NCBI GenBank assembly: GCA_964625065.1
Contig: CAZUZL010000002.1
Coordinates: forward strand, 58,067-122,066
Direction: 5' to 3'
Length of the DNA: 64,000 nt
Source: an uncultured Candidatus Saccharibacteria bacterium
GTDB taxonomy: Bacteria > Patescibacteriota > Minisyncoccia > Phycocordibacterales > UBA9973
A program made the position numbers and the translations under genes. The notes beneath the pieces are model-generated. The model did no database searches. It worked only from the letters and a program-made list of their open reading frames with translations, and was not told the origin of the DNA. Below, piece after piece: positions 52,510 through 54,083 of this stretch. Every line of letters starts with the position of its first letter. The stretch's first letter is position 1.

Positions 52510-54083
52510 TTCCACGACCAGCTTCCGCTAGCCGTGCCTTGTTACGACTTAGTCCCTGTTACCGAATTTACCTTAGGCCCTACTTATGTAGAGACTTCGG
52601 GTACTCCCGGCTCCCTTGACTTGACGGGCGGTGAGTACAAGACTTGAGAACGTATTCACCGCAGTATAGCTGACCTGCGATTACTAGCAATTCCGGCTTC
52701 ATGAGGGCGAGTTGCAGCCCTCAATCCGAACTGGCGCGACTTTTAGAGATTGGCTCCGGGTTACCCCATTGCAGCTTTCTGTAGTCGCGATTGTATTATG
52801 TGTATAGCCCCAGATGTCAAAGGGACATGCTGACCTGGCGTCATCCTCTCCTTCCTCCCAGTACAAAATTTGCGAAGCAAATTTTGTACAGTTTACAGTT
52901 GTTAGTTTACAGTTTACAGAAAATACAAATTGCATTTTTACTGTACACTGTCCACTGTTAACTATTAACTGCGTGCTTCACACGCTTTGTACTGGGCGGT
53001 CTCGCGTGACATTTATAACACACGACGAGGGTTGCGTTCGTTACCCCACTTAAGGGAACAATTCAAACCACGAACTGACGACGGCCATGCATCACCTGTC
53101 AACTAGTCTTTCGAGGGCCCCGGTTTCTCGGGGCTTTCACGTTGATTTCTAACCTTGGTAAGGTTCTTCGTTTATCGTCGAATTAAACCACATAATCCAC
53201 TGCTTGTGCAAGTCCCCGTCTATTCCTTTGAGTTTTAGCCTTGCGGCCGTACTTCCCAGGCGGATCTCTTAACGCGTTAGCTGCGTCTCTCAGAGGGTCG
53301 ATACTCCGAAAGACTAGAGATCATCGTTTAGGGCGTGGACTACTGGGGTATCTAATCCCATTCGCTACCCACGCTTTCGTGTTTCAGTGTCAGTAATGTG
53401 CCAGTAAGCTGCCTTCGCTTTTGGTGTTCCCCAAGATATCAACGGATTTCACCCCTACACCTTGAGTTCCGCTTACCTCTCACATACTCAAGCATGACCG
53501 TTTCGTTCGCGTTTTCCAGGTTAAGCCCGGATCTTTCACAAACGACTAATCACGCCACCTACACACCCTTTACGCCCAATAATTCCGGATAACGCTCGGG
53601 GCCTCTGTATTACCGCTCCTGCTGGCACAGAGTTAGGAGCCCCTTATTCATGAAGTAATGTCAATAAAATTCTTCATTCATAAAAGATCTTTACACCCCG
53701 AAGGGCTTCATCAATCACGCGGCGTCGCTCCGTCAGACTTGCGTCCATTGCGGAAGATTCTCGACTGCGGCCACCCGTAGGTGTATGGACCGTGTCTCAG
53801 TTCCATCGGTGGGGGTCACCCTCTCAGGTCCCCTAAGCGTCATTGGCTTGGTAGGCCATTACCCTACCAACTACCTGATACTGCATAGGCTTCTCCCAAA
53901 GCGTTAAAACTTTAACCCGTAGGTACTATCAAGTATTAGCTAATCTTTCGACTAGTTATCCCTGACTTTGGGGTGAATTCCTATGTATTACTACCTCGTC
54001 TGCCACTGGTATTGCTACCCGTTCGACTTGCATGCCTTATCCACGCCGCCAGCATTCATCCTGAGCTAGAATCAAACTCTTAA
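52510..54083 (-). rRNA. 16S rRNA with a 123-nt insertion in helix 40.
   Basis: 5' AGAGTTTGATTCTAGCTCAGGATGAA (reverse complement of 54058-54083) through GTCGTAACAAGG plus helix 45. The insertion is at 52866-52988. A bidirectional terminator lies at 52311-52335. Confidence 0.85.

Follow-up and report, generated by a model that had tools for sequence, protein, structure and literature searches.

The 16S rRNA gene carried by the 64-kb stretch of DNA analysed here (the window) closes its helix 40 (h40) with a 140-nt, AU-rich hairpin, and this hairpin is the local version of a length-variable h40 extension that is ordinary for the group. Across the clade, the extension is very probably under structural selection at the RNA level. 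In the mechanism proposed here, a stretch of 124 nt would represent the local form of a hypervariable h40 extension at the edge of variable region V7, one that Paceibacteria/Nomurabacteria-type CPR bacteria would carry as a rule. The extension would be transcribed within the 16S rRNA and would prolong h40 as one long, imperfect, AU-rich rod. Nearest the rRNA body, this rod would consist of a conserved basal module (12 bp, a 2x2 internal loop, and 7 bp), beyond which a lineage-specific distal rod would follow, with arms made of short tandem 7-nt repeats and with pairing upheld by RNA-level selection.

The 16S rRNA gene spans positions 52500-54087 on the minus strand (1588 nt) and is recognized as a full-length bacterial SSU rRNA (Rfam RF00177, 1340 bits, model positions 1-1533). 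Its complete h40 hairpin lies at 52857-52996 on the same strand, as placed by cmscan and by the rod predicted with RNAfold, and measures 140 nt as compared with 15 nt in E. coli. The element is bounded by the conserved flanks GACYGCC and GGAGGAAGG and closed by the h40 stem (cmscan, E. coli comparison); on the plus strand, CCCAGTAC occupies 52857-52864 and GTACTGGG occupies 52989-52996. In the local cmscan alignment, GACCGCCCAGUAC is followed by 127 unaligned nucleotides and then by CUGGGAGGAAGG, with the unaligned nucleotides falling in the h40 hairpin loop; where E. coli has a 5-nt loop, the window’s 16S has 128 nt. The original prediction, made by hand alignment to E. coli, had described a 123-nt insertion at 52866-52988 that replaces the h40 loop. 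The replacement is confirmed by the cmscan alignment and the E. coli comparison, but the bounds required correction, since direct reading and a script give 124 nt at 52865-52988 (minus strand), from CCCAGUAC to GUACUGGG; less this stretch, the gene measures 1464 nt. The small hairpin attributed to E. coli at h40, GGAGACTGCCAGTGATAAACTGGAGGAAGG, is found at 100% identity in the 16S of 5426 of 5426 complete E. coli genomes, and GGAGACUGCC corresponds to E. coli 16S positions 1153-1162, labelled h39/h40 (PMC2441807). On these two grounds, the hand alignment is right.

Other features noted from the sequence proved accurate as well. The 124-nt stretch is A/U-rich (32% GC versus 50% in the remaining 16S) and contains tandem repeats of period 7 according to TRF: 4.7 copies of a CUGUAAA unit (RNA sense) in the 3’ arm at 52887-52919, and 2.7 copies of an ACAGUGG-type partner unit (RNA sense) in the 5’ arm at 52940-52958, both on the minus strand. 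It is noncoding, as had been stated, in that the ORFs crossing it are spurious; two of these were looked up and neither was on record. No second copy of the rod was found within the 64-kb window, and a second candidate rod at 7100-7235, considered on account of CTGTAAAC-like motifs, was rejected with a z-score of -1.2 and partly coding sequence. Taken as a whole, the earlier interpretation of the element as an insertion, possibly an expansion segment or an intervening sequence, is partly supported.

The remaining Rfam RNAs of the window comprise the 3’ part of a 23S rRNA, a 5S rRNA, an RNase P RNA, and one tRNA. The rRNA genes, found within 52500-64000, are unlinked: the 23S-5S pair and the 16S gene share a strand but lie 8.6 kb apart; ftsW, secDF, pilin-like genes, and glycosyltransferases occupy the interval. 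The secD-secF-16S gene order is kept in two relatives (L126 and L128), and a near-perfect hairpin with 24-nt arms between secF and the 16S gene (54383-54431) is probably the secF terminator. Two further hairpins lie just downstream of the 5S rRNA, one at 62606-62731 with a 27-bp perfect stem (z = -7.4) and the other at 62408-62563 with 32-nt arms that are 91% complementary. The 23S gene itself contains a 404-nt insertion at 63270-63673 (minus strand), near model position 2620, with no ORF of at least 80 aa inside; at 63283-63540 this insertion resembles a group I intron, although below threshold (36.9 bits, E = 1.8e-7).

Folded by RNAfold, the 140-nt h40 adopts a single long imperfect rod as its minimum free energy (MFE) structure (-58.8 kcal/mol, z = -8.68), and none of 200 shuffled sequences folded as well. 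Rod-type pairs have ensemble probabilities of 0.98-1.0, and the longest uninterrupted helix measures 12 bp. On the minus strand, the base of the rod pairs the 5’ strand CCCAGUACAAAG-CG-UGUGAAG (52976-52996, alignment A1 of 69 sequences) with the 3’ strand CUUCGCA-AA-UUUUGUACUGGG (52857-52877, alignment A1 and ensemble pairing of 0.98-1.0). Beyond it lies the lineage-specific distal rod (52878-52975, 98 nt, 31% GC), which alone folds at z = -4.2 and ends, in the MFE structure, in the apical hairpin AAAAUGCA-AUU-UGUAUUUU (52920-52938). The AAUGCA-type apex of this rod is seen again in four relatives (L037, L010, L061, and L105).

Several perfect hairpins had been predicted in place of this rod. 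The corresponding local palindromes do exist, at 52864-52886 and at 52971-52985 (GCGUG-UGAAG-CACGC), both on the minus strand and both in competition with the basal helix, but they are not the MFE fold: forcing two local hairpins costs 6.5 kcal/mol (-52.3) and forcing three costs 12.2 kcal/mol (-46.6). The one hairpin that had been quoted, with a UUCG loop, counted a G twice and in fact reads CAAAAUUUGC-UUC-GCAAAUUUUG (the palindrome at 52864-52886), and its 3’ arm is the 3’ strand of the basal helix. At the base of the element, comparative data support the rod as the predicted fold over the local hairpins. In many long forms, both arms beside the basal helix are likewise palindromic, with loops GAA(G) and UUC, and these elements could therefore fold as cruciforms too, although the rod is thermodynamically favoured over the cruciform in most of them.

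Relatives were gathered by scanning GTDB species genomes with the conserved 3’ flank, which yielded at least 120 loci, mostly from MAGs labelled Ca. Nomurabacteria, Paceibacterota, or Parcubacteria. Among the matches listed, 80 loci with at least 80% identity to the window over the 330 nt after h40 were kept, a sample biased by its search pattern of a single flank. Nine of these 80 have an h40 of just 11-15 nt; the other 71 of the matches listed share a basal extension, their h40 measuring 42-64 nt in 37 cases and 78-357 nt in 34. Every expanded form among them shares the same architecture, namely a 12-bp stem, a 2x2 internal loop (often CG/AA), and about 7 bp (YAYRAAN/NUUYGYG). The proximal ~42 nt of the window’s h40 belong to this common extension, which leaves only the distal ~98 nt as lineage-specific, and the element is thus not the discrete 123-nt insertion that had been supposed. 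Two metagenome scans were also performed: an exact pattern of the basal strands found no match, and a rod-specific gapped pattern gave three chance matches, all in one unrelated coding gene.

Evidence for selection on RNA structure comes from both the base and the tip of the element. In the gap-free alignment of the basal module (A1, 69 distinct sequences), 92.8% of cells are paired, relative to 65.1% in shuffled sequences and 33-55% with slid partners; both-side changes occur at 15 of 19 pairs, and the covariation score is 0.679 versus 0.204. A family-wide alignment of the distal rods was attempted and failed, the basal module alone being alignable, and RNAalifold on 12 full-length long forms recovered the basal helix and nothing beyond it, because the distal parts cannot be aligned. 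Folded on their own, however, the distal parts of the 34 long forms among the matches listed have a median z of -7.4. Of 71 expanded elements, 66 fold better in the rRNA sense than in antisense (mean difference -10 kcal/mol, Wilcoxon p = 2e-12), and G-U pairs across the 71 number 308 in the sense as compared with 92 in the antisense. The better folding of the sense strand and its excess of G-U pairs point to selection on an RNA as opposed to a DNA palindrome. In pairs of loci that can be compared directly, substituted positions mostly still pair (10 of 11 for L004 and L006, 8 of 12 for L033 and L105, and 6 of 9 for the window and L037).

The distal rods themselves are built in a variety of ways. 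The only alignable homologue of the window’s distal rod among the matches listed is that of L037, with 73% identity over 86 nt, while the flanking 16S sequences of the two are just ~85-87% identical and their basal stems differ. Tandem repeats of period 7 occur in the arms of 12 of the 34 long rods, the unit differing from lineage to lineage, and 18 of the 34 have repeats of period 6-10. Six relatives that form a monophyletic subgroup (L012, L017, L045, L059, L072, and L109) have ~60-nt hairpin modules in h40, between one and four of them in tandem. In each module, the GUAUUUAUAU loop and the stem segments CUGUGG/CCACUGAG are conserved and the middle covaries; the helices are nearly perfect and 25-28 bp long.

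Neighbour joining on ~630 nt of flanking 16S gives a rough tree in which long rods are patchy and interspersed with short forms, and two minimal h40 forms are nested among expanded ones. The short extension, in turn, is near-universal among the matches listed, none of which exceeds 95% 16S identity to the window; the nearest stands at ~92%. A second route, through SecF, led to homologues named Paceibacterota or Parcubacteria and to one full syntenic 16S (L126) plus partial ones, none above ~92% 16S identity. L126 is the closest genome by SecF (76% identity, same secD-secF-16S order), and its 16S is 91.8% identical over positions 1-1094, yet its h40 measures 59 nt. This difference, together with the interspersion of long and short forms, suggests that the tip of h40 is a hot spot of frequent lengthening and shortening at which the extension is dispensable, a return to the minimal hairpin being tolerated. 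Separately, the nearest relative differs from one segment of the 16S to another (1-400, 400-800, 800-h40, and h40-end): L035 is 97.9% identical to the window in 800-h40 and 87.7% after h40, and L017 is 97.0% identical in 400-800 and 84.6% after h40. These segment-wise differences could reflect mosaicism or uneven rates.

Such rapid changes in length may have come about as both arms gained and lost repeat units, and also by inverted duplication beside the basal helix. The best-described analogue of this mode of evolution, by analogy and not by homology, is the P6b stem-loop of the tRNA-Leu(UAA) group I intron of Nostoc, which ranges from 50 to 126 nt and contains 7-nt repeat motifs; there, the two sides of the stem gain and lose repeats, some side hairpins are seen, and each class of repeat turns up at scattered points of the phylogeny (PMC4476775). 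The host RNA and the phylum both differ from the h40 case, and P6b, being part of an intron, is removed in any case.

What becomes of the rod after transcription is a matter of balance. The reading that we prefer, held with even confidence, is that it would remain part of the mature 16S, a bacterial expansion segment that serves no essential function. Like eukaryotic and Asgard archaeal expansion segments and the extra helix of mycobacterial 23S, the element is a length-variable helix at the tip of a surface helix, with a conserved base and a free tip, and is dispensable; among the matches listed, the helix of the relatives likewise varies in length above its conserved base and grows from one fixed point of the core structure. 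The element differs from those examples in being bacterial, very AU-rich, and provided with tandem-repeat arms. The neighbouring eukaryotic expansion is ES9, which belongs to h39 and not to h40 (label es9, PMC2441807). E. coli tolerates an insertion at 16S positions 1153-1162 (PMC2441807), and h40 lies on the surface of the head, where RACK1 docks in eukaryotes (PMC4666399), both of which count in favour of retention. By analogy with RACK1 binding to h39/h40 and with the insertion tolerated in E. coli, the rod would jut from the solvent side of the 30S head.

The main alternative, tentative but deserving of serious attention, is that the rod may be a classical bacterial intervening sequence (IVS), cut out by RNase III or a similar enzyme without religation. 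Intervening sequences excised by RNase III are found in 23S helices 25 and 45 of Salmonella, Leptospira, Coxiella, and others, and are rare in 16S; to our knowledge, none has been described at h40 of 16S. Under excision, the mature 16S would consist of pieces of ~1.1 kb and 0.35 kb, joined by the basal h40 helix and by head proteins. Size, AU-richness, replacement of a terminal loop, and patchiness are exactly the features of such sequences, and they weigh against retention. Specifically, the terminal loop of a conserved helix has been exchanged for an AU-rich extended stem of about 100 nt (~55 bp), the complementary ends of the element form that stem, and distribution is patchy and length variable among the relatives in the matches listed. 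Several of these relatives also possess uninterrupted, perfect h40 helices of 20-28 bp, which would make good RNase III substrates; those of L004, L012, and L017 measure 25-28 bp. A possible leader/trailer processing stem surrounds the 16S gene (54215-54237 with 52293-52315, 74% complementary). No RNase III gene motif was found in the 64-kb window, an absence that is uninformative because the window is a small part of the genome. Finally, CPR rRNA insertions are stated to be removed from transcripts in PMC11270868 and in PMC9297842, both citing Brown et al. 2015, and the former suggests that short non-intron insertions may be of the IVS type.

Unlike known intervening sequences, however, the window’s element sits at h40 of 16S on a basal extension that is conserved clade-wide, and several observations argue for retention over excision. 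The basal module is conserved in short forms too, including forms too short for typical substrates of the enzyme, and the window’s own rod is broken at least every 12 bp. Pairing is kept right up to the tip of the rod, as is an AAUGCA-type apex in a subgroup, and recognition alone would need neither. Likewise, rods of the same family are present in an RNase P RNA, at two helix tips in L045, and RNase P RNA is not known to us to be fragmented.

Rod-like modules outside h40 were observed at several loci. In L045, an RNase P RNA at 6404-6902 (plus strand, 86 bits, below the gathering score) has two hairpin-tip insertions, of 125 and 96 nt, both of them AAAGU-repeat rods of the sequence family found in h40 of L073, L093, and L010, with 27 of 28 nt identical to L073; their nested-palindrome junctions are identical in kind to those of the long h40 forms. 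In L018, a 460-nt RNase P RNA at 4444-4903 (minus strand) contains a ~60-nt two-hairpin module twice, at different places and ~90% identical. One-armed arrays of h40-rod units lie between genes at L018 6595-6640, L065 4928-4964, and L087 4337-4377, with units matching the h40 rods of L067/L103, L065, and L032, respectively; those of L018 and L087 sit just upstream of TATAAT-like boxes. In the window itself, a partial second tRNA-Ile(GAU) at 16989-17100 (minus strand), directly downstream of the real gene at 17117-17189, has its anticodon loop interrupted by ~76 nt, and 51 nt of this interruption (17016-17065) match a portion of L095’s 357-nt h40 insertion at 80% identity. It is tempting to suggest, if only as a speculation that is more probably wrong, that Paceibacteria harbour a family of repeat-built hairpin modules that colonises exposed helix tips of several stable RNAs. 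Such modules would persist after maturation as true bacterial expansion segments, up to ~350 nt long, and would spread from one site or lineage to another. If true, the growth of expansion segments in eukaryotes would have a parallel in bacteria, driven by a mobile or templated mechanism.

A related but distinct idea, which we judge unlikely, concerns the origin of the distal rod and is compatible with either retention or excision: the rod may be, or derive from, a small mobile palindromic element akin to MITEs or Rickettsia palindromic elements, which would target the exposed hairpin tips of genes for stable RNAs and pass from site to site and from lineage to lineage. Both of these known kinds of element are palindromes of ~100-150 nt that are tolerated within genes for structured products. 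Mobility would fit the homology of the rods of the window and L037 despite different basal stems and ~85-87% identity of the flanking 16S, the occurrence of AAAGU-repeat rods both in h40 (L010, L073, and L093) and at two places in the L045 RNase P RNA (one stretch of which matches L073 in 27 of 28 nt), the two ~90% identical 60-nt modules of the L018 RNase P RNA, and the nested-palindrome junctions shared by h40 and RNase P sites. Those known elements, however, are defined by multiple dispersed copies, and none was found for the h40 rod in the 64-kb window or in the related loci. Specifically, the window’s rod lacks a second copy in 64 kb, and ~0.9 Mb of related loci contain no full palindromic copies outside stable-RNA genes, only one-armed arrays. 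Among the matches listed, the relatives of the window’s rod are confined to h40 of L037, and a different rod family occurs in both h40 and RNase P RNA. Moreover, the rods are less conserved than the flanking 16S, as expected of vertical descent with fast divergence; low-complexity arrays may look alike through a shared unit; and growth in place would account for lengths that range without a break.

An assembly artefact or a degenerate 16S pseudogene is very improbable. Two independent Logan contigs of the same population, found through a look-up of flanking proteins, end at the 16S borders, and for this reason the window’s 16S copy has no independent confirmation; the gene is nonetheless full length and high scoring, an expanded h40 stands at the same site in 70 other independent assemblies, and the imperfect pairing with its sense-specific G-U pairs is unlike a chimeric foldback. 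Removal by splicing with religation of the exons, as an intron of group I, of group II, or of some new small class, whether self-splicing or not, is hardly credible: introns are common in CPR 16S genes according to PMC11270868, and the 404-nt insertion in the window’s 23S has a weak group I match, but covariance models of catalytic cores, and Rfam intron and ribozyme models in general, are unmatched in 52850-53000 even at E <= 10 (chance microRNA-like hairpins of 11-19 bits being the only Rfam matches in the element), 124 nt is far under intron size, the plain rod has no catalytic-core features, and its base is continuous with a covarying rRNA helix.

The window’s element belongs to a known, uncharacterised class of short, ORF-less CPR rRNA insertions. 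Tsurumaki et al. 2024 (PMC11270868) report that 48% of CPR 16S genes have insertions of 100 bp or longer. Of 378 such insertions, 139 lack both an annotated ORF and the signature of an intron; most of the 139 are shorter than 200 bp, and they are called uncharacterised and possibly of the RNase III type. The window’s element is likewise from a 16S gene of CPR affiliation, as judged from the labels of its relatives and the names of SecF homologues, with at least 100 nt extra relative to E. coli K-12 and fewer than 200 nt in all, and it likewise has no ORF and no group I or group II signature. The text of that paper contains no structure, covariation, or site-specific analysis of the ORF-less insertions; its recurrent sites are numbered 16IS1-16IS10, and h40 may be among them. 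In the literature searched, no description of h40 insertions was found. The present analysis contributes the h40 site, the conserved basal module, and the continuous range of lengths, along with arms built from repeats, selection in the RNA sense, and a connection with RNase P RNA.

The h40 extensions have practical consequences for the study of these very abundant and poorly detected bacteria, since an additional 30-340 nt alters amplicon length, breaks short-read assemblies at the 16S, and can trip the length and chimera filters used in surveys. Biologically, if the rods are cut out, they would constitute a widespread case of fragmented 16S rRNA. If they are retained, these genome-reduced bacteria would carry large, fast-evolving expansion segments on the head of the ribosome, and the growth of rRNA could be studied in a tractable natural series that runs, at one site, from 11 to 357 nt.
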